Positions 883-30,521 of a stretch of DNA of 32,000 nucleotides are shown here, piece by piece. The notes under the pieces were generated by a model, which saw only the letters and a program-made list of their open reading frames with translations, had not been told where the DNA came from and did not search any database. The position numbers were made by a program, and so were the translations under genes. Positions within the stretch are counted from its first letter, which is position 1. Every line of letters starts with the position of its first letter. The DNA comes from Xylanibacter ruminicola 23 (GTDB lineage: Bacteria; Bacteroidota; Bacteroidia; Bacteroidales; Bacteroidaceae), in the NCBI RefSeq assembly GCF_000025925.1, contig NC_014033.1:1080001-1112000 (forward strand). The letters are read 5' to 3'.

Positions 883-1731
883 TTATAACCAGTAACCACC
901 AGATGACTTTTGGTTCACGAAGACTTTGGGGGTGTAGAGGGCGGCGACTGCGGAGGTGTGCCAGGCGGGGAATATTTCTTCGTGTTCGCGAATGATAGTG
1001 ATTAGATCGTAATAACATTGGGGGTGAACTTGGATGTTGTTTAGAAGCTCCAACTCGTAGGACTGCAGGGATTTAATCACCTGCTCTTCGAGGGGTGATG
1101 CGCTGCGGTGCTGGGTGAATACGTGGGAGCGGAAGACTTGCATCTGCTCGTGAGAGAAGTATGTGTCGGCAAGAACGGACTCTATCTTTATGAGACGTTC
1201 GTGCAGCTGCTGGTAGGAGTCCCAGATATGTTCGCGGATGGCGAGACGGCGGCAGAGGCTCAGGAACGGGAACATTGTGGCGGCGAAGTATTTACCTGGT
1301 TCGCTTTGCTGCCAGTCCGTTCTACTGGATAGACGAAGGATGAGAGCTTCGATAGCGGCGTCGCGCTGAGACTCGAGAGAGGCGATCAGAGCGGCGACGC
1401 GCTCACGAGAAGCGGGAACAACTGTCTGATTTGAGACGATACCGAAACCATTAGGGGTCAAGACTAAATCAAGCGAAGGGATGGCTGTCATATAGGCATG
1501 ACAGGCTACGAGCTTTTCCAAGGGGAAACGGAAACGCTCGTTAGGACCTGAGCTGTCAGCTTCAGCTATCTCGGCAAAATTGGCTTCAGGAACGAAAGTG
1601 TCCATTACCCATTGCTCGGCAGACTCGAGATATGGGTAAAGCTTTTCAATCAATGTAGGCTCACCCTCAACGGTGGCCAGTACGTTAGGTATGAGCAAGC
1701 GCAGCTGCTCGTCGGTGGTAATCAGTTTCAT
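883..1731 (-). CDS. Hypothetical phage protein, co-transcribed with the portal-like gene
   Basis: 282-aa ORF. Its ATG overlaps the stop of the upstream portal-like ORF. I recognise no motif. Confidence 0.6.
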   Translation of the reverse strand: MKLITTDEQLRLLIPNVLATVEGEPTLIEKLYPYLESAEQWVMDTFVPEANFAEIAEADSSGPNERFRFPLEKLVACHAYMTAIPSLDLVLTPNGFGIVSNQTVVPASRERVAALIASLESQRDAAIEALILRLSSRTDWQQSEPGKYFAATMFPFLSLCRRLAIREHIWDSYQQLHERLIKIESVLADTYFSHEQMQVFRSHVFTQHRSASPLEEQVIKSLQSYELELLNNIQVHPQCYYDLITIIREHEEIFPAWHTSAVAALYTPKVFVNQKSSGGYWL

Positions 1732-3065: not shown

Positions 3066-3361
3066 ATCGGTGATTTTTCTGGCAAAGATATGAATATGAC
3101 TAGGGATGAAAAAAGACACAAAAAATGGCGAGCTTCACAGCCAGCCATAATCTATACAATTATATAATCTAACCCGAGGCAGGAATAAAACCTGTACTCA
3201 CTCATTCTTGCCCTTCACAGGGGTATGAATGAAAAAATTTAGGTATGGGCAAAATGCCCATGGTCAAAAACCAAACGCAAAGGTACAAAGAATAAATGAA
3301 ATACAAACATTTTGGCTAATAATTCTTGGAATTAGTGAGAAAATTGTAATTTTGCAGCAAA

Positions 3362-3823
3362 ATGAAGAAAATGAAAGAACCAGATATACAAAAAGCAGAT
3401 GTATCTACGGAGCTGGAGCTGCCGATGTACGATGCGATAGCAGCCGGTTTCCCTATTACCAGTGACTATCCTGCAGACAGGCTGGATTTCAATCGCGACT
3501 TTATCAAGCACCCCGAAAGTACTTTCTATGTGCGTGTGAAAGGCGATTCTATGAAAGAGGCCGGCATCTTCGATGGCGACTTGTGCCTGGTAGACAAAGC
3601 AGAAGAGATGGTACACGGCAATATCGTGGCTGCGTATGTTAACGGTGGGTTTACGGTGAAGTACCTGGATACGTCGACTAAGGATCAGGGCTTTATCCGA
3701 TTGGTGCCAGCCAATAAGGATTTCAAACCGTTTATCATCGATTCATCAGACGAGTTTACTGTCTGGGGAAAAGTAATTTTTACCATTAGAGACTGGAGGA
3801 ATAGCTATTGTTTGCCATTATAG
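3362..3823 (+). CDS. umuD: UmuD-like S24 peptidase (translesion polymerase accessory subunit)
   Basis: S24 LexA/UmuD signature GDSMKEAGIFDGDLCLVDK. No N-terminal HTH. TAATTTTG -7 box at 3347-3354. Overlaps the downstream umuC-like gene. Confidence 0.85.
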   Translation: MKKMKEPDIQKADVSTELELPMYDAIAAGFPITSDYPADRLDFNRDFIKHPESTFYVRVKGDSMKEAGIFDGDLCLVDKAEEMVHGNIVAAYVNGGFTVKYLDTSTKDQGFIRLVPANKDFKPFIIDSSDEFTVWGKVIFTIRDWRNSYCLPL

Positions 3824-5100
3824 ATTGTGATAATTGCTTCGTGAGCTGCGAGCGTGTATTCAGGCCCGATCTCAACGGAAAGCCCGTCGTTGTATTGTCG
3901 AACAACGATGGCTGTGTTGTTGCGCGCTCAAACGAAGCAAAAGCAATGGGCATCAAAGCTGGAACTCCCTACTTCCAACTAAAAGACCTCTTTCCTGGAC
4001 AGGAAATAGCGGTATTCTCGTCGAACTACGAACTGTATATCGATATGACCGACAGAGTGATGTCGCTCATCCGAAAGGAGGTGCCTGAATTCTATCGTTA
4101 CAGTATAGATGAAGGCTTCTGTATGCTGAAAGGTATGGAGCATCTCGACCTGAAAGCATGGGGCGAGGAGATGCATCAGCGCATCAAACAATGCACGGGT
4201 ATGCCGGTAAGCATCGGCATCGCCTCTACTAAGACCTTGGCAAAGATGGCCAGTCATTATGCCAAGAAATATCCCGGATTTCATCATTGTTGCTATATTG
4301 ACAATGTGACAAGACGCGATAAGGCCTTAGAACTGTATCCCATTAGCGAAGTGTGGGGCATTGGCCGACAGTATGCTAAGCGCCTTGAAGCTATAGGCAT
4401 CAAGACAGCCTATGATTTTGCAACGCTCAGCAGAAGCTGGGTTCGGTCGACCTTTAACGTTGTGGTAGAGCGCACCTGGCGTGAACTCAACGGTGAGGAT
4501 TGCATTCTTCTGGAAGACATGACTAAGAAGAAAAGCATCTGTACCAGCAGAAGCTTCCCCGGAATGGTGCCTGACTTTGAGACGCTGCGTACCAGCATCA
4601 GCAACTTTGCTGCCCATTGTGCAGAAAAGCTTCGCAAGCAACAGTCAGCAGCAGCGATTGTGAGTGTGTTCATCGATACAAACCATTTCCGAGAGGACTT
4701 GCCACAGTACTGGAACTATGCCGAGGAACGACTGTTGACACCCAGCAGTAGCACCCAGGATATCGTGCAATGTGCTCTGCGCTGCACCCAGAGGATATAC
4801 CGACAAGGGTATCAGTACAAGCGTGCTGGTGTAATCGTGATGGGCATCTGCCCTACTTCGGCTGTACAGACCAATTTCATCGACTATGATTCGGAGAAAT
4901 ATGAGAAAAAGCGAAAACTGGATGAAGCCATCGACCGTATCAATCGCATAAATGGTAGTGAGACTGTCGTGCTTGGCTCGCAACAATACACGGCTAAAGA
5001 CGGCATTGGCAAAGCGAGTGTTTTCCGAGACAGCATCAAGCACGACTTCCGTAGTCCAAGCTACACTACAAAGTGGAGCGACATTCCTGAAGCAGAATAA
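3808..5100 (+). CDS. umuC: Y-family DNA polymerase, UmuC-like
   Basis: N-terminus MFAIIDCDNCFVSCERVFRPDLNGKPVVVLSNNDGCVVARSNEAK is the classic UmuC/ImpB start. 430 aa. TTG start overlapping the umuD end. Confidence 0.9.
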   Translation: MFAIIDCDNCFVSCERVFRPDLNGKPVVVLSNNDGCVVARSNEAKAMGIKAGTPYFQLKDLFPGQEIAVFSSNYELYIDMTDRVMSLIRKEVPEFYRYSIDEGFCMLKGMEHLDLKAWGEEMHQRIKQCTGMPVSIGIASTKTLAKMASHYAKKYPGFHHCCYIDNVTRRDKALELYPISEVWGIGRQYAKRLEAIGIKTAYDFATLSRSWVRSTFNVVVERTWRELNGEDCILLEDMTKKKSICTSRSFPGMVPDFETLRTSISNFAAHCAEKLRKQQSAAAIVSVFIDTNHFREDLPQYWNYAEERLLTPSSSTQDIVQCALRCTQRIYRQGYQYKRAGVIVMGICPTSAVQTNFIDYDSEKYEKKRKLDEAIDRINRINGSETVVLGSQQYTAKDGIGKASVFRDSIKHDFRSPSYTTKWSDIPEAE

Positions 5101-8719: not shown

Positions 8720-10234
8720 TTATTGTACTGCAGATAAGAGTTTCTCCCAAATTTTGACCATTGCAAATGTATCTAGGCCGCAATATGCTAGTAATGCTTT
8801 CCTTGTTTTTGCCTGTTCCTCAGGATCCATAAACTGAATCTTTGGGAATATGGTCATTGCCTCGCTACCATTATGAACACAACCTTCTAGATTATGGTAA
8901 TCCAATGATGGATCGTTAGGGAATAAGGTAGGCAGTACTACCTTAATGGAGAACGAGCCTCCCATCGCTGGCAGGTAATACTGACCAGCAGCAAACGGGT
9001 CAAGTAAATCCTTGATGTTGTCTTTGATGTTCAGCAGATGCTCAGCCAGGTCAGGATACCACCCTGCCAGTTCTTTGATGCGCGTGCACTCAAAGGATTT
9101 ATTAAAGGCAAGGGTACATACATTCATAGGAATATCCTTGCATAGCTGCTCTGCCAAAGCTCTTCTTGGGTCGGAGCCAGAAATTCCCAGATGTTCTTTG
9201 TGTATTAGTTCACCACCTTCATTTTCAATGATATGCAGTGAATACTGGAACGTAATCTGCTGGTAAACCTTTGTTCCTTCAAACTCTGGAACAACCTGTT
9301 GTATAGTTTCAAAGTCCAGAAAATACAATGGATAGGTCAAAGTGTTCAAGAACTCTTTAATTTTGTCTGGCTCAATGTGTGGTTTATTGGCTAATGCGCT
9401 TTCTATCTGTATTCGCCTCACAGGAGTCAGCTTCTCATTCTTAACATCATTGTATGATATTATACCCTGACGATAATACTTCAGCTTGTCTGAGAAGCGC
9501 ATACGATAAAGGTCGAATACTGATGGGGATGGAATGTGTCGAGAGCAGTATTTGAAGAAACCGCAGTCGTATGGAGCCTTACATCCTTCCCAGATATCCT
9601 GCTCGGGCTCTTCGCAGCTTTGCAGGAGTTTTAAAGCAGCAGTTTGTCTTGCTTCCACCTGAGCATATTCGTCGGCTATCATTTCAGAAACATCGTTGAT
9701 AACGAACAGACGCTTCAAATCAAGTTCGCCCTCTCTTACATAGTCTGAATTAAGGCAAACCAGATATGTGCCAGTAACGTTGATTCCGCATTTTTCGAGT
9801 ACCCATTTCTGATAGGCGATATCTGGCAGGAATTTGCCCAGTTTAGCTGGTTTACCATCAAATTCAGGATAGCTAACACTCTTTACTTCATAGATGGCAT
9901 ATCCATGCTCTGTGCGGTGAAGTATATCCACAGCACAGTAGTTGCCTTCGAAAGAGAATGCAGCTTCACATATATTGTCTTGGCCTTCAGCTATCAAATT
10001 CTTGGTGTTTTGAATCATAGCAGACAAATCAAGACTTCCATCAGCTCGCTTTACTGTAACATCCACATAGGGACCAAGGACACCTTTGGCAAGATTTCCG
10101 ACTTCCGTACCTTTTTCAAAGCGCCCTTCAGCAGATGGGTCGATCACTTCTTCCTCTGGCTTATACACGCTCATCCATAAGCACTTGGGGCACTGACAAT
10201 ACTTAGCGTACTTCGACTTTGATAGCTGTTTCAT
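8720..10234 (-). CDS. DUF2779-family protein: N-terminal Cas4-like PD-(D/E)XK nuclease plus C-terminal DnaQ/RNase-H-like exonuclease
   Basis: N-terminus LSKSKYAKYCQCPKCLW. Nuclease core AVDILHRTEHGYAIYEVKS. C-terminal YFLDFETIQQVVPEF...ITFQYSLH (DxE exonuclease motif). Its start lies 2 nt after the WYL gene stop. Confidence 0.8.
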   Translation of the reverse strand: MKQLSKSKYAKYCQCPKCLWMSVYKPEEEVIDPSAEGRFEKGTEVGNLAKGVLGPYVDVTVKRADGSLDLSAMIQNTKNLIAEGQDNICEAAFSFEGNYCAVDILHRTEHGYAIYEVKSVSYPEFDGKPAKLGKFLPDIAYQKWVLEKCGINVTGTYLVCLNSDYVREGELDLKRLFVINDVSEMIADEYAQVEARQTAALKLLQSCEEPEQDIWEGCKAPYDCGFFKYCSRHIPSPSVFDLYRMRFSDKLKYYRQGIISYNDVKNEKLTPVRRIQIESALANKPHIEPDKIKEFLNTLTYPLYFLDFETIQQVVPEFEGTKVYQQITFQYSLHIIENEGGELIHKEHLGISGSDPRRALAEQLCKDIPMNVCTLAFNKSFECTRIKELAGWYPDLAEHLLNIKDNIKDLLDPFAAGQYYLPAMGGSFSIKVVLPTLFPNDPSLDYHNLEGCVHNGSEAMTIFPKIQFMDPEEQAKTRKALLAYCGLDTFAMVKIWEKLLSAVQ

Positions 10235-10236
10235 CG

Positions 10237-11730
10237 TTATTTCTCGTTTAAATAGTTTTCGATTATTTCTGATTTAAGCGCTCTGCGCACTACGTCTCGG
10301 GTAAATGGGCAACCATCTACATATTCTTTTGGGTATGCGTTAGCCATTTCCAGTAGTCCATTGTATAGTTCACGCACCACATCCTTGCATCGTGCAAATC
10401 CTTTGAAAGGCAGGCTTTCCTTACTTACTCGGCTATTAAGAGTAACTGTGATATCCATCATATCGCCAACCTTCTTCAGCTCTATCTTAGTAGGCTCCTC
10501 TTCTTCGCCCAGTTCGATTACAGTCCTGGGATGATTTACTATTCTCTCCAGGCAAGTACTAATGTAACTCCACTCTATGCCCAGGTTTTCGATAGAATCT
10601 GTCATAATCATCGTTCCCAAGCTTATGCGATAGACGATGCATTTCCAATCATTGCTATCATTATGCAGATAGTTGAATGCGAATAACTGCGGCTCTAAGT
10701 CTTCTATATTCAGGCTATCACCTTCTACATTTTTATATGATTGTTTACACCACTCAAGACGCTCCAGCATCTCGTCGCGAAACCATTCAGGTGATTTAAC
10801 CACGAGACGGTCGCCATAGAACATCAGTTCCTGTATTATTTCGTAGTTTAACATCACATCTAGCGATACCTTGATGTTTCTTTCGCCCTCTATCTCAAGC
10901 TTTTGTGTTTCGCTGATGGGATACGAATATAGATAAGGATACAATGAGATATCTGCCCATAGCTCGATGTGCTCCACCGTTTTTTCAGGTGGCACCGTAA
11001 CACCTACCAGATGTTTGAAATATTGCTTAAACGATGTTTTGGTGGCTCGGTATTTTACCTCATTGTTCTCCTTTACAGCACTCATGCAAATCAGCGGATA
11101 AGCCTCAATCTTATCGCAGCCTTCCTGCTGTGCCATCAGATACCAGCGACGCCAGTACTGTTTCAGATAATATGGATGTAAAGTAATCGTTTCTGCATCG
11201 CGAAAATCCTTTCTATATTCCACATCTACCACCTGTCGATTGCGTATAGCTTTGAATAGTGGCATAAGGAATTCTGCATCCCATGGCGTTCCACCTTCAA
11301 AGCGTGCTATCTCTTTCTGCTTACTCATGATGTTCTGGTCAAGACGAGTAAGCATCTGGTCGATCCAGCCAAACTCCGACATACCCTTGAATCCCTGCAA
11401 CAGACTACGTACCTCTTGCAGCTTCTCAATCTCATTCTCCGTCAACTCACGGTTATATATCGAGTCGAATCCGTCGCGATAGCGGTAATAGCGTTTCTTG
11501 TGTCTGTCTTCCCATACGATTCCCTCCTGTCCAAACACCTTAAAGAACTTGGCATTCATCTCGGTAATATCCTGACTAAAGGTAGTTCTCGACTGGATAG
11601 GCAGCATTCCTCTATCCTCCAGCTTCCTGTTTACGATAGCCATCAACTGTTCGCGTGTATATTCACGTCCAGTACCAAAGCACTGATCGTAAATCATTTC
11701 TCGCATTGCATAGTCCTTCGTATTTGCCAT
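10237..11730 (-). CDS. WYL-domain transcriptional regulator (wHTH-WYL-WCX) with an extra C-terminal domain of about 150 aa
   Basis: N-terminal wHTH (MANTKDYAMREMIYDQ...). WYL core VDVEYRKDFRDAETITLHPYYLKQYWRRWYLMA. Start set to MANTK (11730), downstream of the -7 box at 11759-11766. Confidence 0.8.
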   Translation of the reverse strand: MANTKDYAMREMIYDQCFGTGREYTREQLMAIVNRKLEDRGMLPIQSRTTFSQDITEMNAKFFKVFGQEGIVWEDRHKKRYYRYRDGFDSIYNRELTENEIEKLQEVRSLLQGFKGMSEFGWIDQMLTRLDQNIMSKQKEIARFEGGTPWDAEFLMPLFKAIRNRQVVDVEYRKDFRDAETITLHPYYLKQYWRRWYLMAQQEGCDKIEAYPLICMSAVKENNEVKYRATKTSFKQYFKHLVGVTVPPEKTVEHIELWADISLYPYLYSYPISETQKLEIEGERNIKVSLDVMLNYEIIQELMFYGDRLVVKSPEWFRDEMLERLEWCKQSYKNVEGDSLNIEDLEPQLFAFNYLHNDSNDWKCIVYRISLGTMIMTDSIENLGIEWSYISTCLERIVNHPRTVIELGEEEEPTKIELKKVGDMMDITVTLNSRVSKESLPFKGFARCKDVVRELYNGLLEMANAYPKEYVDGCPFTRDVVRRALKSEIIENYLNEK

Positions 11731-11758
11731 ATCGCGTAGTATTTTATAGTTTATAGTG

Positions 11759-11796
11759 CAAAGATACAAAAAATCTGTTCACCTAAAGCGAACAGA
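11759..11796 (-). promoter_or_regulatory. Promoter-operator cassette A (drives WYL and DUF2779 genes)
   Basis: Plus strand caaagata-N7-tctgttc-acctaaagc-gaacaga. On the minus strand this is TCTGTTC-N9-GAACAGA-N7-TATCTTTG. Confidence 0.75.
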
Positions 11797-11815
11797 TAAT
11801 ATTTTTTTTAAAATA

Positions 11816-11858
11816 GAGCTGGCCGCCATACTCAAAAACGTCAAGTGGGTGCCAGCTC
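11816..11858 (-). ncRNA. Hairpin element H1 (terminal element of RNA array 1, terminator-like)
   Basis: 8-bp closing stem GAGCTGGC/GCCAGCTC with inner helices. Followed on the minus strand by TATTTTAAAAAAAA. Paralog of H2; both share ggccgccatactc...caagtggg. Confidence 0.55.
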
Positions 11859-11860
11859 CA

Positions 11861-11909
11861 ACAGAACTCGTTCCCTCAATAACGGGCATGCGATATTCTG
11901 TTTGTCTAA
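11861..11909 (-). repeat. E-family bulged hairpin, copy E1 (degenerate)
   Basis: ACAGAA/TTCTGT outer stem, inner CCC/GGG helix, conserved tail ttgtctaa (minus strand TTAGACAA precedes the hairpin). Confidence 0.5.
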
Positions 11910-11940
11910 CCATTTCAAAGAAATCTTTTCCTTATTAAAA

Positions 11941-11981
11941 GGCTGGCCGCCATACTCGATAATGCCAAGTGGGAGCCAGCC
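11941..11981 (-). ncRNA. Hairpin element H2
   Basis: 7-bp closing stem GGCTGGC/GCCAGCC plus inner CCA/TGG and CTTG/CGAG helices. Followed on the minus strand by TTTTAAT. Confidence 0.5.
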
Positions 11982-12022
11982 CCAATCTGCACTTAGCCGC
12001 ACCAATTGCGGCAGCCACAGAT

Positions 12023-12120
12023 GTAGATGGAAGTAAGCGACAGAATCGAACTGTTACTGAAAGCCTTGCGGCTTGCCCACCTTTACCATACATCGTGGTT
12101 CTACTTGATCTTCCATCTCC
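12023..12120 (-). ncRNA. tRNA-like element T2 (T-arm, D-arm, GNRA-capped central hairpin, encoded CCA, no anticodon loop)
   Basis: On the minus strand: 11-bp outer stem GGAGATGGAAG/CTTCCATCTAC with one mismatch. D-arm-like CCAC-[..TGGTA..]-GTGG. AAGCC-GCAA-GGCTT hairpin. T-arm ACAG-TTCGATT-CTGT. 3' region GCTTACT-T-CCA. Confidence 0.55.
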
Positions 12121-12172
12121 GACAGGACTCGCGCCCTTACATTGGGCATTGCGATATCTTGTTTGTCTAAGA
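12121..12172 (-). repeat. E-family bulged hairpin, copy E2
   Basis: gacaggactcgcgcccttacattgggcattgcgatatcttgtttgtc. Stacked helices CTCGC/GCGA and GCCC/GGGC with a 7-nt loop and a 3-nt bulge. TTAGAC tail. Confidence 0.55.
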
Positions 12173-12182
12173 CTATAAGAAA

Positions 12183-12263
12183 GGCGGATTGGCGAAGGAG
12201 TTGAACCTTGCAATATACTGCCATTACAGGAAGCCCCGCTACCGCTGCGACCATCAATCCGCC
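12183..12263 (-). ncRNA. tRNA-like element T1 (extended acceptor-like stem, D-arm, canonical T-arm, no anticodon arm)
   Basis: On the minus strand: GGCGGATTG...CAATCCGCC 9-bp terminal stem. D-arm TCGC-AGCGGTA-GCGG. T-arm AAGG-TTCAACT-CCTT. The central region forms only a 3-bp stub GCT-[TCCTGTAAT]-GGC. Confidence 0.55.
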
Positions 12264-12281
12264 TTTTTTACGATGATGTTG

Positions 12282-12319
12282 CAAAGGTAATGTTTATATG
12301 TTCAGCCATAGCGAACAGA
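12282..12319 (-). promoter_or_regulatory. Promoter-operator cassette B (drives RNA array 1, no ORF)
   Basis: caaaggta-N7-tatgttc-agccatagc-gaacaga, the same architecture as cassette A. The next 450 nt downstream on the minus strand are non-coding structured RNA. Confidence 0.7.
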
Positions 12320-12333
12320 CTGAAATTTTTTAT

Positions 12334-12825
12334 TTACATAGTATTTATTTCCGCCAATTCTTCAGGTGTATGATGCTGCATGTCATAGACAAGAGAATCG
12401 TCAGAATAGCCATTCACTATATCCTTAGCCTGTTCTTCAGTAAGAAATGGTTTTCCTTTATCTTTGATATTCAACAGAGCTTTTAAGAAATCCTGGCGAT
12501 AGTGTTCGAAAATCTCTGTAGTATAAGGAAGACTTCTGACGCTATAGTATAACTTCTTGAATTCCTCAACGGTATATATCTTACCATCTATGCACGACAT
12601 GGCACAGGCTTTAGGAAATGTGCACCAGCGTTTCAGTTCAAGATTAACAAGTAAAGATTTCTGTCCTTCTATCTGTTCAACACAGAGAAAACACTTATCC
12701 GTCAAATACTTGATAAACTCTTCCAGTTCTTTTTCGTCTTTACATCTAACTGCATAAGGAAGAATACAACGCCCTTTTCCCATGTAGTCTTCATTTAACT
12801 CTTTATAATATACTTCTTCAAACAT
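12334..12825 (-). CDS. Hypothetical protein (163 aa)
   Basis: ORF 12 nt downstream of the 12838-13179 gene, same strand. No motif recognised. Confidence 0.6.
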   Translation of the reverse strand: MFEEVYYKELNEDYMGKGRCILPYAVRCKDEKELEEFIKYLTDKCFLCVEQIEGQKSLLVNLELKRWCTFPKACAMSCIDGKIYTVEEFKKLYYSVRSLPYTTEIFEHYRQDFLKALLNIKDKGKPFLTEEQAKDIVNGYSDDSLVYDMQHHTPEELAEINTM

Positions 12826-12837
12826 AGTCCGATTCTT

Positions 12838-13179
12838 TTAAGATTGCATTTCTCCAAGTAAATAGTAAACGATTTGAGCTTTAATATACTCTTTACTGTT
12901 TTCCTCGTAGGTAATCAACTTACCAGATCTATTTGAAAACAGTTCTATCTCTGCTTTTTCGATAGCGAACCAATGAGAACTCTGCCCAGCATTGAGCTTC
13001 AAAGCATCATAGTGACGAGGCTGTAAGATACCATCGACATCAATAACGTATCCGTCTTCGTCCAAATCACAAAACAAAGAATTTGTTTCTGGGCGAATCT
13101 CACGAGTGAAAATATTAGTTTTTCCACTTATGATTTCATTCAACCTATGTTGATTTGTATCTAGCTGTATAACTTTCAT
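12838..13179 (-). CDS. Small ASCH/PUA-like domain protein (113 aa)
   Basis: Paralogous by eye to the C-terminal domain of the 13809-15008 protein (shared pattern I..GK....T.EI.P.N......L..DG.V....GI.Q.R.YDA). Start lies 19 nt downstream of the cassette C transcription start region. Confidence 0.55.
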   Translation of the reverse strand: MKVIQLDTNQHRLNEIISGKTNIFTREIRPETNSLFCDLDEDGYVIDVDGILQPRHYDALKLNAGQSSHWFAIEKAEIELFSNRSGKLITYEENSKEYIKAQIVYYLLGEMQS

Positions 13180-13204
13180 GATTCTGATATTTAAAATTTC
13201 GGAA

Positions 13205-13242
13205 CAAAGGTAAGCTATATTTGTTCAGCCAAAGTGAACAGA
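13205..13242 (-). promoter_or_regulatory. Promoter-operator cassette C (drives 12838-13179 and 12334-12825)
   Basis: caaaggta-N7-tttgttc-agccaaagt-gaacaga. Confidence 0.7.
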
Positions 13243-13262
13243 TAAATAATTTTTCAAAAAGA

Positions 13263-13304
13263 GGCAGGACTCGCGCCCTCACATTGGGCATTGCGAGCCC
13301 TGCC
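13263..13304 (-). repeat. E-family bulged hairpin, copy E3 (terminator of RNA array 2)
   Basis: ggcaggactcgcgccctcacattgggcattgcgagccctgcc. About 16 bp of stacked helices. Followed on the minus strand by TCTTTTTG. Confidence 0.6.
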
Positions 13305-13343
13305 CTAACTCCACGACCTCTGTCATTGCCATTGTGGAGAGAA

Positions 13344-13414
13344 AGGATTGGCGAAGGAGTTGAACCTTGCAATATGCCATAGAAGACCTCGCTACCGATG
13401 CGACCATCAATCCT
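13344..13414 (-). ncRNA. tRNA-like element T1-prime (paralog of T1)
   Basis: The 5' 22 nt (one substitution) and 3' 31 nt match T1, including the D-arm TCGC-ATCGGTA-GCGA and T-arm AAGG-TTCAACT-CCTT. Central stub GTC-[TTCTAT]-GGC covaries with T1 (GCT...GGC). Confidence 0.55.
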
Positions 13415-13425
13415 TTTTTTCAAAA

Positions 13426-13468
13426 GGCAGAGCTCGCGCCCTCAATACGGGCATTGCGATGCCCTGCC
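13426..13468 (-). repeat. E-family bulged hairpin, copy E4 (leader hairpin of RNA array 2)
   Basis: ggcagagctcgcgccctcaatacgggcattgcgatgccctgcc. On the minus strand it starts about 15 nt after the predicted start site, is preceded by TTAGACA and is followed by TTTTGAAAAAA. Confidence 0.55.
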
Positions 13469-13488
13469 TGTCTAACCCTATTTTTCTG

Positions 13489-13526
13489 CAAAGGTACCAT
13501 ATATGTGTTCAGGCAAAGCGAATAGA
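13489..13526 (-). promoter_or_regulatory. Promoter-operator cassette D (drives RNA array 2, no ORF)
   Basis: caaaggta-N7-tgtgttc-aggcaaagc-gaataga (one half-site degenerate). Abuts the stop codon of 13527-13802. Confidence 0.65.
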
Positions 13527-13802
13527 TTACATTTTTTCTTTTAAATGGTTCTGATATGCATCCAAAATGGCCGACGAAGCCATGTCACCAATAAGGAACT
13601 CTGGTTCACCTAAATCTTTCAAAAGAGATTCTACATTCTCGCGCTCACCAGTATAGAGCCAATTATTTCGAATCCACAATCCTAGGCCAAAGTGAAAGAA
13701 AACCATATCTTCTGCTTCCACTATTTGCTTTTTCTCTTCCAGTGTTAGCCTCTTATCCAGACATTTCCAAGCCTCCGCTGTTGTTTTAGGACACCTTGCC
13801 AT
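13527..13802 (-). CDS. Hypothetical protein (91 aa)
   Basis: ORF 6 nt downstream of the ASCH gene. Motif FHFGLGLWIRNNW noted but not confidently assigned. Confidence 0.55.
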   Translation of the reverse strand: MARCPKTTAEAWKCLDKRLTLEEKKQIVEAEDMVFFHFGLGLWIRNNWLYTGERENVESLLKDLGEPEFLIGDMASSAILDAYQNHLKEKM

Positions 13803-13808
13803 ACGAAT

Positions 13809-15008
13809 TTATATTTTATCACCTAAAACATAGTTCATAATACAGTCCGTATAATCGAGCTTTTCATCCTCTTCCTGTTCAGAATAGAGCTTATAATCAC
13901 CATATTCAGAATCCATATACATCACATCTGTATTATTAATCTGACACGTGTACGAATCTTCTTTGTTAGTGAACTGAATAGCGTCGTATCTTCTCAACTG
14001 CGGAATTCCATTAATTTCCTTTACTGTCCCATCTGCGTTTAAGATGAAAAACATACTCAAATTCTTTGGGGTAATCTCTTTTGTGAATGATGCCATTTTG
14101 CCTGTTGCAATATCCTTAAAAACATCTTTGTTAACTTTGAGTTTTAGAATATTGTCATTGCTATCAGCCATTTTAGGAATTTCCAACACATCGATTGTTT
14201 TTCCTCCACAGAAACTTTCAAATTCACCTTCTTCAATTTTCTTACCAAACATGAACTGTGCAACCATCCATGCAATTTCGTTGCCAGTAAAATCCATAAT
14301 GAAATAAGGCTTTGTTTCATCTTGTGGATCTGGGAGATTGTATATGCCAGATTCTTCAGCTAACTCAAAAGCCACATAACTATTGCCACAGAAAACTGTC
14401 ACAGTTTTAAATGACTTCATTTTGAATGCGTCATCTACACATAGTAGATCAGTCAAATAAGGAGTCAAATACAATTCTATCCCCCCAAAATCGCCAGCCT
14501 TAATCTTTTCGAATGTTTCCTTTGTACAAGGTATTTGCACCTCAGTTTCGTCTTCAGTAACATCAACATTCTCCAACTGTACTTGATGAGCAGGAGGCAG
14601 ATTGTTCTCATCCAAATCATAGTCGAAGAGGTTTAACTTGCCTTTCACGTCGAGTATTGGCTCATCAAACAACCATGCATCTTCTAGTTTCCATTTTATT
14701 GCACCAGCGTCAGCCCAAACAGAATCTACATCACCTTCTTCAAAACCAGTCACTGTAACATATCCAATAATGGCGCTTGTTGGCAATGTTTCTAGTTCCG
14801 GAATATTTCCAAAGCTTATTTGATTCTCAATACATGACTCCAGAGTTTCTGGAATTCCTGCATAGAAGTTCTTAGTAATTTTTTTAGAACTTGCGTGAAT
14901 CAGAATCCTTCTAGGAACCTGAGCTGCTTTCCAAGTTCTGTTCTCTACATCTTTAATACCTGCGCATACCAATGATGCCCAAGGCTGCTGAATTGACAAG
15001 GTTTTCAT
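13809..15008 (-). CDS. Multi-domain ASCH (PUA-like) protein
   Basis: N-terminus MKTLSIQQPWASLVCAGIKDVENRTW...RILIHAS is the classic ASCH signature. The C-terminal roughly 110 aa repeat the fold pattern of the 113-aa protein at 12838-13179. Confidence 0.75.
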   Translation of the reverse strand: MKTLSIQQPWASLVCAGIKDVENRTWKAAQVPRRILIHASSKKITKNFYAGIPETLESCIENQISFGNIPELETLPTSAIIGYVTVTGFEEGDVDSVWADAGAIKWKLEDAWLFDEPILDVKGKLNLFDYDLDENNLPPAHQVQLENVDVTEDETEVQIPCTKETFEKIKAGDFGGIELYLTPYLTDLLCVDDAFKMKSFKTVTVFCGNSYVAFELAEESGIYNLPDPQDETKPYFIMDFTGNEIAWMVAQFMFGKKIEEGEFESFCGGKTIDVLEIPKMADSNDNILKLKVNKDVFKDIATGKMASFTKEITPKNLSMFFILNADGTVKEINGIPQLRRYDAIQFTNKEDSYTCQINNTDVMYMDSEYGDYKLYSEQEEDEKLDYTDCIMNYVLGDKI

Positions 15009-15028
15009 AATTCTAAAGTATTTTGTTG

Positions 15029-15364
15029 TTATTTATCTCCGTACTTTTCTTTATTAAAGTCATGCTTTGCATGCTGATAGACATAGTTTATTGCCTTCTT
15101 CAACACATCTGCATCATTGCTCATTAGGTCGCCAAAAATGTCATCTTCTGGAACATACTTAATAATGTTACCTTTATAACCTACCATAAAATACAACCCA
15201 CTAGGATCATAAACTGGATGGAAAATTCCCTGATAGCATGAGAACTCAAATGCTACTTCACCATTCTCGTTCTCAATGCGCTTACGAGAGAAAACCTGGC
15301 CTTTAGAGGTTGTGATTTCAAGACTAAAGACCTTTTCAAAATCGATTATACCATTCTTTTCCAT
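15029..15364 (-). CDS. Hypothetical protein (about 111 aa)
   Basis: Start set to MEKNGII (15364) because the longer ORF's ATG overlaps the cassette E -7 box. Confidence 0.55.
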   Translation of the reverse strand: MEKNGIIDFEKVFSLEITTSKGQVFSRKRIENENGEVAFEFSCYQGIFHPVYDPSGLYFMVGYKGNIIKYVPEDDIFGDLMSNDADVLKKAINYVYQHAKHDFNKEKYGDK

Positions 15365-15388
15365 AACTATATATTTTAATTTTTTCGG

Positions 15389-15426
15389 CAAAGTTAAAGA
15401 TTATTTGTTCAGTCAAAATGAACAGA
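15389..15426 (-). promoter_or_regulatory. Promoter-operator cassette E (drives 15029-15364, the ASCH gene and 13527-13802)
   Basis: caaagtta-N7-tttgttc-agtcaaaat-gaacaga. Confidence 0.7.
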
Positions 15427-15559: not shown

Positions 15560-16618
15560 CTACCAACTGGGAGGCAATATGATATTCTTGACATCGTGAG
15601 CTTTTTTGAAGAGAGGTGAGATTTCTTCATCGGTGAAGCCGGCGATGCCGCAACCGATGCGGGTGACGAGGAACGTCAAGTTCTGGTGCTGCTTGGCGAA
15701 CTCGATGAAATCGTCGACGTAAGGACGGATGCTATCTACCCCACCTTGCATAGTGGGGATGGCATAGCTCTGACCCTGCAGACCGACACCTTGACCCATG
15801 ATGGCACCGAAGTGGCGATATGCAACATATGCTGCACCTCCGCCATGCATACCGCGAAGGTTTGAGCCGAAGACGAAAATCTCGTTTGGCTGGAGCGAAG
15901 TAATATGCTCCGGAGTAGTACGCTTTTCTTCCATAGTTCTTCTTTTCATGAAATCCATAGGTGCGGCACAAGGTGCTGCCTCTTCCAGTATAGGTTCGCC
16001 AACTATGCCGAACTCCGGCATAATTTCAGGCATGTCAAAGTCCATATCAAAGTATTGACGGAAATACGGTACGATGATGTCTTCCTTGATTTTCTTGTAT
16101 TTCTGTGATATGGCTGCAGGAGTCATTCCCATCTGGGCGGCAACATCCTTAGATTTGAAGCCCTGCAGGAGAATCATATCTATGATAAGTCGCTCCTGAC
16201 GGCTCATAGGAACATGGTCGCAGACATCTTCAACCATATGATTAAACTGCAGACGGAGATTACTCGAGACATCGAATGACTGGAGATAGTCCTCAAAGGT
16301 GATGCTGCCGTATTCCTTGCGGTACCATTTCAGAGCATCGAGGACTATGAAACGAAAGCCGTTGATAAGCCAGGTCTTTAGGGAAACGTTTGGGGAATGG
16401 TCCTCCAGTGGCTTCCAATCATGTTCCATCAGGAATATAGCATACTGATGGGCAAGTGAGAGGAAGTCCAGATTCTCTTTCTCATGAAGCTGATAACGCT
16501 GGTCGAAAATGTAATAGCCGACCTCACAATATCCGTAAAAATAGGTACGGATAATGTCGGCGTCGCCCTGGCGGAAGCCCCTTAGAATCTCCTTGTCTGA
16601 TAGTCGCCTATATGTCAT
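15560..16618 (-). CDS. Sigma-70/ECF-like factor fused to a C-terminal macro-like (A1S_2505-type) domain
   Basis: Region-2-like SLKTWLINGFRFIVLDALKWYRKEY. Region-4 HTH MSRQERLIIDMILLQGFKSKDVAAQMGMTPAAISQKYKKIK. C-terminal VFGSNLRGMHGGGAA...GLQGQSYAIPT...TRIGCGIAGF recalls the macro-domain glycine motifs and the family I remember as A1S_2505 phage non-structural protein. Confidence 0.6.
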   Translation of the reverse strand: MTYRRLSDKEILRGFRQGDADIIRTYFYGYCEVGYYIFDQRYQLHEKENLDFLSLAHQYAIFLMEHDWKPLEDHSPNVSLKTWLINGFRFIVLDALKWYRKEYGSITFEDYLQSFDVSSNLRLQFNHMVEDVCDHVPMSRQERLIIDMILLQGFKSKDVAAQMGMTPAAISQKYKKIKEDIIVPYFRQYFDMDFDMPEIMPEFGIVGEPILEEAAPCAAPMDFMKRRTMEEKRTTPEHITSLQPNEIFVFGSNLRGMHGGGAAYVAYRHFGAIMGQGVGLQGQSYAIPTMQGGVDSIRPYVDDFIEFAKQHQNLTFLVTRIGCGIAGFTDEEISPLFKKAHDVKNIILPPSW

Positions 16619-16743: not shown

Positions 16744-17382
16744 ATGACAGATTTAATTCCAACAAGAGTTCACAACTTGATTATTGTAGACGAAAGCGGT
16801 TCAATGGAGTGTATCCGCAAACAGGCCTTCACAGGTATGAATGAAACCCTGCAGACTGTTCGCATGATGCAGAAGAAGTACCCCAACCAGATTCAGTACG
16901 TAACGCTGATTACCTTTGACAGCGACCACACTAAACTGCACTTTGACAATACGCTTGCTGACAAAACAACGGATCTGAAGTGGAAAGCTTACCATCCTTG
17001 TGCTGCCACACCTCTTTATGATGCTATCGGAAAGGGAATCTCAAAGGTTAATGCCCAAGTGGAAGATGGCGATCATGTCCTTGTGACCATCATAACAGAC
17101 GGTTACGAGAACTGTTCAGAGGAATGGACGCTGAAGATGGTACGTACCCTTATCGAGAAGCTGAAGAAACAGAACTGGACCTTCACGCTGATTGGTACCG
17201 ACAATCTTGATGTGGAGGAGATGGCCCAGTCGTTTGCCATCGAAGAACACATGGAGTTTACTCAGGATGAGAAAGGTACCAAGGAGATGTTCGCCCGTGA
17301 GCGCCGTAGCCGCGAACGCTACAACTGCTGCGTGGCTGAAGGGGCACCAATGAATAAAGGTGATTTCTTCAAAGAAAACTAA
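16744..17382 (+). CDS. von Willebrand factor type A (vWA) domain protein
   Basis: MIDAS motif LIIVDESGSM plus downstream TPLYDAIG and IITDGYEN. 212 aa. The only plus-strand gene in this block. Confidence 0.8.
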   Translation: MTDLIPTRVHNLIIVDESGSMECIRKQAFTGMNETLQTVRMMQKKYPNQIQYVTLITFDSDHTKLHFDNTLADKTTDLKWKAYHPCAATPLYDAIGKGISKVNAQVEDGDHVLVTIITDGYENCSEEWTLKMVRTLIEKLKKQNWTFTLIGTDNLDVEEMAQSFAIEEHMEFTQDEKGTKEMFARERRSRERYNCCVAEGAPMNKGDFFKEN

Positions 17383-18521: not shown

Positions 18522-19469
18522 TTATGCCCACATACAATTAATTGTTATTATGGATGTTGGCATTCCTATTATTTGAATATCAAACTTCAAACTAGGTTCT
18601 ATTAATGTCGAAGCATTATGTATTCTAAAACTAAATTGCCAGCCATTATCCATGTATAATTCTGCAGTATTATTACTTTTAGGCTTTAATCCAAAAGAAA
18701 TAATTCTTGTTGGCAGTAACGATATTGGTATTTTTCTACTTGGCACCTTTGTCTTAGAAGCATGATTTAATGTACCTCGAAGATTAAATGCCATAAGTTG
18801 AGTCATTTTTGATGAATCTATACCAATAAGTTTATAAAAATCATATTTACCTAGTAAGTATTCAACCATACGAGAAGGAACCGTTTTATCTTTTTCATAA
18901 TCCTTGTTAATTTCTTTAATAAAAGCCTTTAACAAAGGAACATATACGGTTGATTCTTTATTAGGGAGAGCACTCCAAGCAATTTTACCCCTGTTTTTTA
19001 TCAGAGGGGCAAAAATTGGGGCAATTTCATCCCAATATGTTTTTGAGCATGGCATACCTAACCAACTATTGCCAAAGTCCAACACATTAGACAATCTACT
19101 ATGTTTAACAGCCAGATGGTTATGCTTTACACTTATACCTATTACCCATTTTACACTATCTCGAATAATTAGAATATCTCTAACATCACCAATAATTCCT
19201 TCTTTGTCAGATTGTAATCTTATTGTGAGTATATCCCCAGAATTATCTTCTATCATAGGTTCAAGCTCACGTAAAGTTGGAATAGCAGCCAATGCTTCCT
19301 TTTTCATAATCGTCTTAGTATTCTCGTCAAGACAATTCCAATTATTCATATCCTGTATAAGGTTGTTGTTGTTTGCTACAACAACAGACCTTATTTTAGA
19401 TATTTCTTCTTCGAGACATTTAACACATATGTATTCAAATGCTCTTCCGAGTTCGTCACTTTTTGGCAT
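18522..19469 (-). CDS. Type II restriction endonuclease, HaeIII-family-like (GGCC predicted)
   Basis: 315 aa. N-terminal GRAFEYICVKCLEE, which I recall as characteristic of the HaeIII REase family. 3-nt gap from the M.HaeIII-like gene. Confidence 0.6.
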   Translation of the reverse strand: MPKSDELGRAFEYICVKCLEEEISKIRSVVVANNNNLIQDMNNWNCLDENTKTIMKKEALAAIPTLRELEPMIEDNSGDILTIRLQSDKEGIIGDVRDILIIRDSVKWVIGISVKHNHLAVKHSRLSNVLDFGNSWLGMPCSKTYWDEIAPIFAPLIKNRGKIAWSALPNKESTVYVPLLKAFIKEINKDYEKDKTVPSRMVEYLLGKYDFYKLIGIDSSKMTQLMAFNLRGTLNHASKTKVPSRKIPISLLPTRIISFGLKPKSNNTAELYMDNGWQFSFRIHNASTLIEPSLKFDIQIIGMPTSIITINCMWA

Positions 19470-19472
19470 AAG

Positions 19473-20465
19473 CTAGAATTCTATAGCATCTTTAATCGCT
19501 AGGGCAATTTCATATGCAAGATTAACTGGAACAGCATTTCCAATCATCTTGTATGCATTGTCTACCTTGTCATAAATAAATTTAAAAGAGTCGGGGAAAC
19601 CTTGTACTCGTGCAACCTCTCGAACAGTCATTCTTCTATACAAATGCTCTTTCCCTTCAACAAATCTACAATCATTTGTGTCAAATTTAATCATCTTTGG
19701 AGCTTGTGGATGTAATTGGCATTGTCTTCCAGATGCCTGAACAGTAAAACCTTGTTCATCCCAAGCCTTAACTCTATTTCTACTCATATAAATTGTAGAA
19801 TAAGCGCCAATAAAATACTCATTGTTATTAATAGCCTCTGGATTATGATGGTTCTTTTCAAGTGCAGGTACTGCACTATCTTTTAAATCCCAAATAATAT
19901 CACGTAGTGTAATTTTTTTCTTATCATCACGTGTACTACCTTCTGGAAATTTAAAATCTATATTTAAATCATTTCTAAAACCAATATAAAATACTCTTTT
20001 TCTTTCTTGAGCTACTCCATAATCTTTTGCATTAACTAAAGTAAGAGAAACATTGTAGCCACTTTCCTTGAACATATTTAATATATTCTGAACGGCACCA
20101 GAATGTCTATCCGCAAGCATACCGCTTACGTTTTCTGCTAAAAAGAATTTAGGTTTTACTTCCTGTAATATTCTTATATAGTCAAAGAAAAGCTGACCTC
20201 TAGCATCTTCAATACCACGTAAAGAACCAGCTTCACTCCAAGATTGACATGGAGGTCCACCTATTATACCATCAACATCTTTAGGGAAGTCACTTTCCTT
20301 GATATTTCTAATATCACCCCTGATTAGCTTTGTTTTGGGGTGATTTGCTTCAAAAGTTTCCCAAATAGAGGGATCAAACTCGTTTGCAACAGGTACTTCA
20401 AATCCAGCTCTTTCAAAGCCAAGATCTAGACCTCCACAACCGCTAAATAAACTTATTACTTTCAT
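19473..20465 (-). CDS. DNA (cytosine-5)-methyltransferase, M.HaeIII-like (GGCC predicted)
   Basis: All C5-MTase motifs: [11 protein letters not shown] (I), [12 protein letters not shown] (IV), ENV (VI), [10 protein letters not shown] (VIII), [13 protein letters not shown] (X). The target-recognition region [19 protein letters not shown] and [14 protein letters not shown] closely tracks the M.HaeIII sequence as I remember it. Confidence 0.9.
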
Positions 20466-20474
20466 TTTTAAATT

Positions 20475-21335
20475 TTATATTTTATATTTTACTAGTTTTA
20501 CTTCTATTAAATCAGCTGTATTATTGGGGTTTTGAACAAAAGTATCTTCTATTGTAAGATTATCAATCCTTTGAGAAAGCTCTGACAATTCATCTATGTT
20601 CTCAAAAGAATTATACTTATCACTTGGTATAATAGCCATTAACTCAAAATTACTTTCATCATATCTGTATATATCGGCAAAACTACCTACTTTAAATGGA
20701 TGAGATATACCCCACATTCCCCTAGCTCTAAAAAAAGTTATTCTCAACGGGTCAACAGCATTTATATGCGCAAGTTCTTTGGTTTCTTCTAAATCTAATT
20801 CAGATGATTCTTCAATGCTTTGTTTCACACTATTAAAAACATTTTCATAACATTCTTTACTTGCACAATATACTGAACCATATACCAGGGCTAATGACTT
20901 TAAATTATTTTTCTTTTTTTCAACACAGCCAATGGCATATATTATATCTTTTACATCCCAATCTCCATTTTCTATTTCACGACAAGCCTTTGATATTTTA
21001 CTATCATTTTTAAACAAATGAGATTTGGGATAGCTACTATTTAAATTAATGTTTCCGATTGACTCAACTTTTTTCACTTCAATTGCAGCTCCTCTTTTAA
21101 GAACTGCATCTGGGGGATTATTCTTTCCACCGCCATATGACAAAGCCTCTGCACGCTTCCTTGTTTTGTCAACACCACTTAAACCAAGAGAATTGGAAAA
21201 AGCATCTTTAATATACTCCTCTAAAGGCTCTCCTAACGAATGTAAACGATTATTAGAATTAGGGGAATTTCCAATAACTCTTCTATTATCTTTAATTATA
21301 TTAATAATTGCAGTAATAATATTGTAATTGCTCAT
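20475..21335 (-). CDS. Second restriction-endonuclease candidate (PD-(D/E)XK; possibly NgoPII-family)
   Basis: 286 aa. PPDAVLKRGAAIEVKK fits a PD...(E)xK catalytic core. Size and N-terminal NIITAIINI...EPLEEYIKDAF resemble what I recall of the NgoPII family. 9-nt gap to the methyltransferase gene. Confidence 0.45.
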   Translation of the reverse strand: MSNYNIITAIINIIKDNRRVIGNSPNSNNRLHSLGEPLEEYIKDAFSNSLGLSGVDKTRKRAEALSYGGGKNNPPDAVLKRGAAIEVKKVESIGNINLNSSYPKSHLFKNDSKISKACREIENGDWDVKDIIYAIGCVEKKKNNLKSLALVYGSVYCASKECYENVFNSVKQSIEESSELDLEETKELAHINAVDPLRITFFRARGMWGISHPFKVGSFADIYRYDESNFELMAIIPSDKYNSFENIDELSELSQRIDNLTIEDTFVQNPNNTADLIEVKLVKYKI

Positions 21336-30468: not shown

Positions 30469-30521
30469 ACATTTAATATGTTTTGTACGGATTAATGTGA
30501 ACTAAAATTCTATAATATACT

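Follow-up and report, generated by a model that had tools for sequence, protein, structure and literature searches.

A conserved gene-and-RNA cassette with a WYL regulator, a DUF2779 protein, ASCH-like proteins and tRNA-shaped RNAs in Prevotellaceae

The DNA analyzed here is a 32,000-nucleotide stretch of the Xylanibacter ruminicola 23 genome (NC_014033.1, positions 1,080,001 to 1,112,000; hereafter, the window), in which a 6.7-kb block at positions 8720-15426 encodes a WYL-domain regulator, a DUF2779 protein, ASCH-like and other small proteins, and two arrays of structured RNAs, all in minus-strand orientation and organized in five transcription units (Table 1). The block proved to be a genuine cassette of genes and RNAs, conserved in Prevotellaceae of the rumen and gut and predicted to regulate itself. 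The reading that we favor, with a probability slightly better than even (about 0.55), is that the cassette is a mobile, WYL-gated, inducible conflict module, with the ASCH-like proteins and the tRNA-like RNAs as its cargo. A preliminary description of the block, made from the sequence, had listed a WYL-WCX regulator with an extra uncharacterized C-terminal domain, a DUF2779 protein abutting it and combining a Cas4-like nuclease with an exonuclease, at least three ASCH/PUA-like domains in two proteins, two RNA arrays, and the same operator in front of all five units; these elements are borne out by the profile searches, structural models, and comparisons with relatives described below, the three ASCH/PUA-like domains as a probable assignment.

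The operator is a 19-bp palindrome, TGTTC-N9-GAACA, present in the window in five copies at 0-1 mismatch (starting at 11776, 12299, 13222, 13506, and 15406), all of which fall inside the block; the observed match count was reached in 0 of 100 shuffles. Each palindrome lies at a fixed distance upstream of a TAnnTTTG motif, and the five sites align over ~45 nt. If the sites are read as Bacteroides promoters, in which TAnnTTTG forms the -7 box and TTTG the -33 element, the palindrome spacer carries, in most of the five promoters, a TTTG that would occupy the expected -33 position. The predicted WYL site would straddle the -33 region of five promoters, the regulator's own included, and therefore would set the output of the whole regulon. 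The palindrome was assigned to the WYL protein mainly because the half-site co-varies with the regulator across the family: upstream of WYL genes in Bacteroidota, 15 of 80 loci carry a palindrome with at least 9 of 10 half-site matches, compared to 9 of 455 control windows, and the half-site is TGTTCAG at Prevotellaceae, Flectobacillus, and Flavobacterium loci, and TGTGCAG at Mucilaginibacter, Dyadobacter, Chitinophaga, and other loci. The palindrome is thus a putative site for the WYL protein in its own promoter, and the sharing of the operator, together with this co-variation, supports the interpretation of the block as one co-regulated unit, within which the gaps between genes of the protein operons are 2-20 nt. 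In relatives, the genes behind operator-bearing promoters encode WYL, ASCH-like, 111-aa, 525-aa, helix-turn-helix (HTH), and other proteins, as well as RNA arrays. Identity of the palindrome with a LexA/SOS box was ruled out by its absence upstream of the umuDC-like genes and elsewhere in the window.

The regulator matches the WYL domain over residues 154-220 (Pfam PF13280, 2e-10; PADLOC WYL, 1.4e-20) and the WCX domain over residues 253-326 (Pfam PF25583, 1.3e-6). The N-terminal 100 residues are conserved, with the PADLOC WYL profile aligned from residue 47, and no Pfam HTH model was matched. By sequence profile, the nearest solved structures are PafBC and DriD, both weak matches. The last ~165 residues have no relatives among Pfam or PDB sequences and none outside the regulator's own clade. 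An AlphaFold2 (AF2) model of this C-terminal domain (pLDDT 86) contains two beta-sheet-plus-helix repeats, for which Foldseek returned the single-strand binders PUR-alpha, Whirly, and MRP1/2, all weak matches that we treat as a lead only. The closest relatives of the regulator come from Xylanibacter ruminicola and uncultured rumen Prevotellaceae; a WYL clade at 54-55% identity is solitary and retains only its own operator. A leader of 110-145 nt precedes the WYL coding sequence in some relatives (L005, 9860-9990; L013, 640-760), and a conserved leader sequence, CTTGAATTnAnATTCAAnCGCGAGAAC..., also begins the RNA array of L005.

The DUF2779 gene is separated from the WYL gene by 2 nt. Its product matches the complete DUF2779 model (Pfam PF11074, 2.4e-44; residues 304-429, model positions 1-126 of 126) and the NCBIfam UU173 family (1.1e-13), and its N-terminal part (residues 3-231) matches the PADLOC Cas4 model (2.7e-5); cysteine clusters 13/15/18 and 218/224/230 are visible in the sequence, and a 52% identical homologue, P0399, matches Pfam Cas_Cas4. 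According to the literature, proteins of the DUF2779 family join a Cas4-like nuclease to an RNase H-like 3'-5' exonuclease and have no known role (PMC13621843, PMC3985635). An identical protein, residue for residue, is encoded in assembly GCA_019973335.1.

The 399-aa protein contains an N-terminal ASCH domain (PF04266, 1e-5, above the Pfam cut-off; ASC-1 ASCH in PDB, 5e-4), matches phrog_3193 (4.8e-29), and carries a GIKDVENR motif recognizable in the sequence. Over its last ~110 residues, the protein shows homology to the 113-aa open reading frame (ORF) at 12838-13179, and we denoted the shared domain g113. This domain has no sequence match in Pfam or PDB in either protein. The AF2 model of the 113-aa protein (pLDDT 95) finds ASCH/PUA-like folds as the top Foldseek matches in PDB, followed by YTH, with weak scores (probability at most 0.93, TM 0.35-0.49, E 0.16-0.6), and one phage homologue of g113 carries an ASCH annotation. 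Considering that the C-terminus of the 399-aa protein is homologous to an ORF whose model finds ASCH/PUA-like folds, two block proteins probably contain three such domains. Profile comparison showed no relationship between g113 and the C-terminal domain of the window regulator.

The g113-like family is rare, with 309 clusters in a set of 1.84 billion representatives. Free members of ~115-135 aa are accompanied by a variety of fusions: the domain occurs as the C-terminal part of WYL-WCX regulators that equal the window regulator in length (P0281, P0340, and P0406, and also at locus L132), in the DUF2779 protein P0399, and in AAA+ ATPases, ASCH proteins, and a T5orf172 nuclease-like protein. The fusions to WYL and DUF2779 thus link the three protein components of the cassette independently of gene order. 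A distant g113-like protein, annotated as ASCH, is encoded in Bacteroides phage BS-TP2 (L147, record 30300-30689), upstream of genes for PAPS reductase, a ParB-like nuclease, and terminase; no B RNA (see below) was found in the 12 kb scanned around this gene.

All four small proteins to which the preliminary description assigned no function are present as ORFs, and two of these can be placed, the 113-aa protein tentatively as ASCH/PUA-like by the weak fold matches and the 91-aa protein as a member of DUF6794 (Pfam PF20594, 1.5e-15), a family that recurs beside the module in L017, L098, L099, L108, L111, L114, and L124. The 163-aa and 111-aa proteins have no match in Pfam, NCBIfam, PHROGs, or PADLOC. 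Homologues of the former (74-86% identity) were identified in L013-L015, L099, L110, L114, L125, and L126, the gene being kept directly upstream of WYL in the closest relatives, and homologues of the latter lie behind the same operator in L014, L015, and L135.

The two RNA arrays consist of modules that recur in relatives of the block. In the window, there are two copies of a tRNA-shaped RNA denoted B, one of a second tRNA-shaped RNA, D, and four of a long hairpin, A; individually, these copies fold as expected, and the minimum-energy fold of B2 is a cloverleaf. The B cloverleaf combines a long closing stem, a D stem of 4 bp whose loop contains GG, and a T arm, GGTTCAACTCC, and has, at the position of the anticodon arm, a hairpin of variable length capped by GAAA, UUCG, or other loops of 4-6 nt (model R1 scores B1 at 99 bits and B2 at 88.5 bits). 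B pairing was tested by counting pairs on the cloverleaf as read from the sequences; this cloverleaf replaced the automatic RNAalifold consensus, which paired the 5' strand to the T-loop and missed the T arm. Across 29 distinct sequences, 87.7% of the cells are paired, compared to 33-48% in slid controls, with 12 pairs changed on both sides, a result matched by 0 of 500 shuffles; since the 5' strand served to collect the sequences, its invariance in this alignment is a matter of construction. D is likewise a cloverleaf, with a D loop of 14 nt and an arm capped by GCAA (89% paired versus 37-58% slid; 13 doubly changed pairs). In hairpin A (89% versus 36-52%; 11 doubly changed pairs), the outer stem co-varies freely and the apex, CAAUGCCC-loop-GGGCG, is invariant, with a bulge AAU, a GCCC/GGGC stem, and a 7-nt loop. 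Two hairpin types run into U-runs and probably terminate the arrays.

With tRNA genes and phage tRNA arrays, B and D share the cloverleaf, the GGTTCRAnTCC T-loop, the GG-containing D-loop, and the long closing stem, but lack the 7-nt anticodon loop, have in its place an arm that varies in length and loop, and have a closing stem that extends past the tRNA ends. ARAGORN predicted 0 tRNAs, and Rfam gave 0 matches at the gathering score anywhere in the window. Thus, the description of these RNAs as tRNA mimics holds as far as their shape and its co-variation are concerned, whereas identification as tRNA genes is ruled out by the missing anticodon loop, the ARAGORN result, and rejection by the Rfam tRNA models. 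Under permissive settings, Rfam yielded sub-threshold hits to tRNA-Sec (18-20 bits versus a cut-off of 47) and to DUF2815 RNA, which we took as chance or partial resemblance, and a pseudoknot model hit that merely matches the operator palindrome. Taken together, the arrays comprise at least three conserved, uncatalogued families of structured RNAs, two of which are tRNA mimics without anticodons. One B copy (L094, 1584-1690) carries a ~33-nt insertion in the middle of the T-loop, GGTTC-tttgcaagcaaagcgaccaaaggtcgagcgc-AACTCC, and a similar hairpin, GCGACC-AWA-GGTCGAGCGC, lies in the WYL leader of L013 (~700-760); the insert could represent either a mobile hairpin of small size or something akin to an intron.

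The components recur together outside the window, as expected if they form a single module, both at WYL-anchored loci and at the distant locus L132. Taking no account of the RNAs, we compiled 11 non-redundant loci with WYL proteins at least 62% identical to the window regulator. Of these 11 loci, 7 contain a B or D RNA and 9 some RNA module directly upstream of WYL; DUF2779 is next to WYL at 7 loci, and an ASCH-like protein is encoded at 8. The exceptions include two contigs that end less than 800 nt from WYL. Prevotellaceae relatives keep the operator, the RNA arrays, ASCH-like proteins, and usually DUF2779, in varied contexts that resemble defense islands or prophages; module order differs between loci, and the cargo is partly variable. 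Relatives are found in small chromosomal islands between housekeeping genes, which also hold a T5orf172 protein with a C-terminal g113-like domain. In L005, there is a type IIG restriction-modification (RM) system, and in L008 (6537-8009), ORF6N-domain and Fic proteins that match the PADLOC candidate PDC-M59A/B (5e-139 and 9.5e-55) are encoded between two operator-bearing promoters of the WYL regulon.

A search with a 22-base B pattern retrieved 51 metagenome loci, about one-third of which contain the WYL module; in about half, B stands alone as a gene, equipped with a TAnnTTTG box and a hairpin terminator. Ten of the lone B genes lie ~640-820 nt beyond a tmRNA gene (L093, L104-L107, L109, L117-L119, and L122; for example, L107, 6735-8060), divergent from an unannotated 137-aa ORF; in L107, there is a weak phage-integrase match just past lone B. 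This arrangement, seen in metagenomes of the rumen and the human gut, has the appearance of a small element that occupies the tmRNA site. The g113-like domain, too, occurs at several loci where no WYL was detected.

Locus L132 (1339-6677) holds a more divergent form of the cassette; it encodes a DUF2779-like protein only 26-28% identical to that of the window and an adjoining WYL protein (26% identical) with a C-terminal g113-like domain, with two B-type RNAs, two D RNAs, and E hairpins upstream. The palindrome there is TCTCA-N7-TGAGA, in seven copies confined to that promoter region (0 of 200 shuffles). The architecture, combined here with a different palindrome, is thus older than either operator sequence. 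In the ~30%-identical WYL loci of other Bacteroidota, the B RNA model found nothing.

Table 1. Features of the block (window positions)
Feature	Positions	Strand	Content or basis
Operator 5 unit		minus	111-aa gene, 399-aa ASCH gene, DUF6794 gene
Operator 4 unit		minus	RNA array 2
Operator 3 unit		minus	113-aa gene, 163-aa gene
Operator 2 unit		minus	RNA array 1
Operator 1 unit		minus	WYL gene, DUF2779 gene
DUF2779 protein, 504 aa	8720-10234	minus	Cas4-like PD-(D/E)XK plus RNase H-like 3'-5' exonuclease; Pfam, PADLOC, NCBIfam
WYL-WCX regulator, 497 aa	10237-11730	minus	Extra C-terminal domain, residues ~333-497; Pfam, PADLOC
Operator 1	11759-11794	minus	WYL-DUF2779 promoter; palindrome 11776-11794, -7 box TATCTTTG at 11759-11766
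RNA array 1 (modules below in 5'-3' order)	11817-12265	minus	Sequence, repeats, folds, covariation
tRNA-like B1	12181-12265	minus	
Hairpin A	12121-12171	minus	
tRNA-like D	12023-12120	minus	
Hairpin E	11986-12023	minus	
Hairpin C	11941-11984	minus	
Hairpin A	11859-11911	minus	
Hairpin C	11817-11858	minus	With U-run
Operator 2	12299-12317	minus	RNA array 1 promoter
163-aa protein	12334-12825	minus	No family match
113-aa ASCH/PUA-like protein (g113 domain)	12838-13179	minus	AF2 fold matches, weak
Operator 3	13222-13240	minus	Promoter of 113-aa and 163-aa genes
RNA array 2 (modules below in 5'-3' order)	13259-13476	minus	Sequence, folds, R1 model
Hairpin A	13426-13476	minus	
tRNA-like B2	13340-13418	minus	
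Small hairpin	~13305-13337	minus	
Hairpin A	13259-13304	minus	With U-run
Operator 4	13506-13524	minus	RNA array 2 promoter; one mismatch
DUF6794 protein, 91 aa	13527-13802	minus	Pfam PF20594
399-aa protein	13809-15008	minus	N-terminal ASCH, unassigned middle, C-terminal g113-like domain (residues 287-397)
111-aa protein	15029-15364	minus	First gene of its operon; no family match
Operator 5	15406-15424	minus	Promoter of 111-aa/ASCH/DUF6794 operon

Elsewhere in the window, weak matches to the terminase large subunit (25450-27198, 7.5e-7) and to portal (1731-3119, 6e-4) lie 22 kb apart and enclose the whole accessory region; should both prove real, two normally adjacent genes would be separated by the accessory genes. 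A low-GC (29-34%) RM cluster at 18522-21335, ~3 kb from the block, encodes a HaeIII-family endonuclease, a C5 cytosine methyltransferase, and an NgoPII-family endonuclease, with the two endonuclease genes flanking one methylase gene. On the plus strand at 3362-5100, ~5 kb from the block, there are umuD-like (S24 peptidase) and umuC-like (ImpB family) genes. The 352-aa protein encoded just upstream of the block (15560-16618), with no operator before its gene, combines a sigma-70/ECF-like N-terminal part with an "A1S_2505 family phage non-structural protein" domain (4.6e-44).

For the conflict module, we infer the following scheme of binding partners, direction of regulation, signal, and biological role. 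At rest, the WYL protein would act as a repressor holding the five promoters shut. A single-stranded nucleic-acid signal produced by infection or DNA damage, which DUF2779 may generate or process, would bind the WYL domain and/or the C-terminal domain, and the signal-bound regulator would let the promoters open. The ASCH-like proteins and tRNA-like RNAs would then act together, either as ribonucleoprotein (RNP) effectors or as an enzyme-and-decoy pair, in defense, exclusion, or addiction of the element. We count in favor of a conflict function the company that the module keeps, namely, the HaeIII-type RM genes in the window, the type IIG RM system in L005, and PDC-M59A/B in L008.

Several observations weigh against the conflict module. 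PADLOC recognized no defense effector in the block; PADLOC-DB v2 yielded the generic Cas4 and WYL models and one negligible candidate-family hit. DUF2779 is missing at 4 of the 11 WYL-anchored loci, and its homologues with 59-64% identity lie in other island contexts without WYL, which led us to reject DUF2779 as an obligate partner of WYL. The B RNA also occurs as a lone gene at loci without a detected WYL, and it therefore has a function for which the regulator is not needed. Since a B-derived pattern served to collect half of the RNA-bearing loci, the only unbiased measure of co-occurrence is that from the 11 protein-anchored loci. The fold assignments of g113 and of the regulator's C-terminal domain depend on weak Foldseek scores. 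Finally, the regulator may activate rather than repress: its nearest solved relatives by sequence, PafBC and DriD, are activators, and the palindrome of SiwR, too, is located inside the promoter that SiwR activates.

Among the alternatives, the one that survives best, as a tentative possibility clearly less probable than the WYL-gated conflict module, is a conflict system centered on the RNAs themselves. Under this scenario, the tRNA mimics and hairpin RNAs would be loaded on g113 domains, either free or fused to the regulator, DUF2779, AAA+ ATPases, or GIY-YIG-like nucleases, and the resulting RNPs would function as sensor and/or effector. A tRNA-directed enzyme of the invader would cleave or modify the mimic, or else DUF2779 would trim it, releasing a fragment that switches the WYL regulator. 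RtcR senses tRNA fragments, and such a system would be its WYL-based counterpart.

We consider it unlikely that the cassette is a DNA-damage (SOS-like) regulon, in which the WYL protein would be an activator responding to single-stranded DNA (ssDNA), DUF2779 a repair or resection nuclease, and the ASCH proteins would handle damaged or modified bases. The profile similarity to PafBC and DriD is compatible with such a regulon, as are the location of the SiwR palindrome, likewise within the promoter between the -10 and -35 regions, the umuDC-like genes 5 kb away, and the activity of Cas4-like and DEDD nucleases on DNA ends. However, umuDC has no palindrome upstream, the module resides in variable islands near RM and candidate defense genes rather than in the core genome, and the arrays of tRNA-shaped RNAs would be left without a role in a repair regulon. 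The promoters, furthermore, have good -7 boxes and most have a -33 TTTG, an element that activator-dependent promoters usually lack.

No less doubtful is counter-defense cargo, in which the tRNA-like RNAs would serve as decoys for host enzymes directed at tRNAs (at the acceptor, the elbow, or the CCA end) and the ASCH proteins would protect or repair RNA. To judge by its weak matches to terminase and portal, the window lies in a phage-like element. N-terminal ASCH domains are frequent among phages, phage BS-TP2 encodes a g113-like protein, and lone B genes running from promoter to terminator are present in small islands next to tmRNA. The preliminary description had taken the block for phage cargo, and the setting of the window agrees with this to that extent, but many module copies are in small chromosomal islands without phage structural genes. 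Moreover, a search with the exact RNA pattern and the WYL protein found nothing in ~2.9 million viral contigs, the cassette and the RNA were not found in 50,697 phage records, and megablast/blastn against phages and plasmids gave no match to the cassette or the arrays. Having no anticodon loop, B and D cannot decoy anticodon nucleases, nor can they replace cleaved tRNAs, and the tightly gated, autoregulated design is more typical of defense by a host or an element.

An addiction system of the toxin-antitoxin kind, with an ASCH-type ribonuclease or DUF2779 as the toxin and the structured RNAs as a type III-like antitoxin or decoy, seems improbable to us. Several RNA copies do lie beside the proteins on a mobile element, but nothing in the block corresponds to the identical tandem repeats of ToxI: unlike in ToxIN-like type III systems, the repeats in the block are dispersed, of several types, and 60-100% alike, with no tandem array. 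The RNAs and the proteins stand behind the same operator, which is not a design for a fixed toxin-to-antitoxin ratio, the B RNA also exists alone, and the g113 fold match is weak. Least of all do we expect the intergenic structures to be only cis elements (terminators, attenuators, or repeated palindromic units) of a set of WYL-regulated accessory genes, the U-runs of two hairpin types (probable terminators) and the variable module order notwithstanding, since each array has its own operator and promoter, the cloverleaves show canonical T-loop and D-loop sequences and strong co-variation, B is a free-standing gene elsewhere, and the RNA families persist in a lineage where protein identity has dropped to 26-28%.

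Defense operons are known to be gated by WYL regulators, whose signals and much of whose cargo are not known. In the cargo described here, the RNA families are tied to a rare ASCH-like domain and to the uncharacterized DUF2779 nuclease family by co-occurrence, by the operator, and by fusions. If the RNAs are working parts of the module, they would represent a new use of tRNA mimicry in conflicts by mobile elements or their hosts, offer a functional foothold for DUF2779, and make the cassette a compact natural switch that controls multiple promoters in Bacteroidota. Because a named strain, Xylanibacter ruminicola D31d (locus L014), carries the module, experiments should be feasible.

In agreement with the preliminary description, searches of PADLOC, Rfam, and the literature revealed no described system with the composition of the block. 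The Rsr (Ro60)/YrlA and RtcR RNA repair operon is stress-gated, joins tRNA-mimicking non-coding RNAs with RNA-binding proteins, and has a regulator that senses nucleic-acid fragments; its resemblance to the cassette is a lead only. A Ro/Y-RNA identity was considered because of a VWA protein at 16744-17382 and was rejected: among the window proteins scanned, this is the only VWA protein and none is TROVE/Ro, RtcB, or RtcA; relatives of the module do not keep the VWA gene with it, and Y-RNA-like Rfam families gave no match within 11650-13650 at E up to 10. Solo Cas4/DUF2779 proteins (MMSYN1_0389, UU173 family) have the same two-nuclease architecture as the window protein, but only one DUF2779 subclade (67-79% identical to the window protein; 99% in a near-identical metagenome copy) pairs with WYL. 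PafBC, DriD, and SiwR bind ssDNA, and BrxR and CapW are WYL regulators of phage defense with unidentified ligands (PMC10693628). With the first three, the block regulator shares a palindromic site inside the promoter and, by analogy, possibly a single-stranded nucleic-acid ligand, and PafBC and DriD are its best profile matches; however, those proteins activate repair genes of the core genome, whereas the regulon of the block is mobile and rich in RNA genes.

The nearest precedents are WYL-gated defense operons and YafY-EVE pairs. Like BrxR and CapW, which are repressors, the block regulator is a WYL-WCX protein at the edge of a mobile island, with a palindrome in its own promoter and in those of variable cargo genes; unlike in those systems, the cargo is not BREX, CBASS, or any other PADLOC system, the regulon includes RNA genes, and the regulator has an extra 165-residue C-terminal domain and only weak similarity to solved WYL proteins. 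In YafY(WYL)-EVE pairs, a WYL regulator is likewise encoded beside a protein of the PUA/ASCH superfamily, an arrangement for which ligand-activated antibiotic resistance has been proposed (Bell et al. 2020, PMC7641849). Those pairs, however, consist of EVE domains with small-molecule-binding partners, whereas the Prevotellaceae cassette adds DUF2779, RNA arrays, and an operator shared by multiple promoters.

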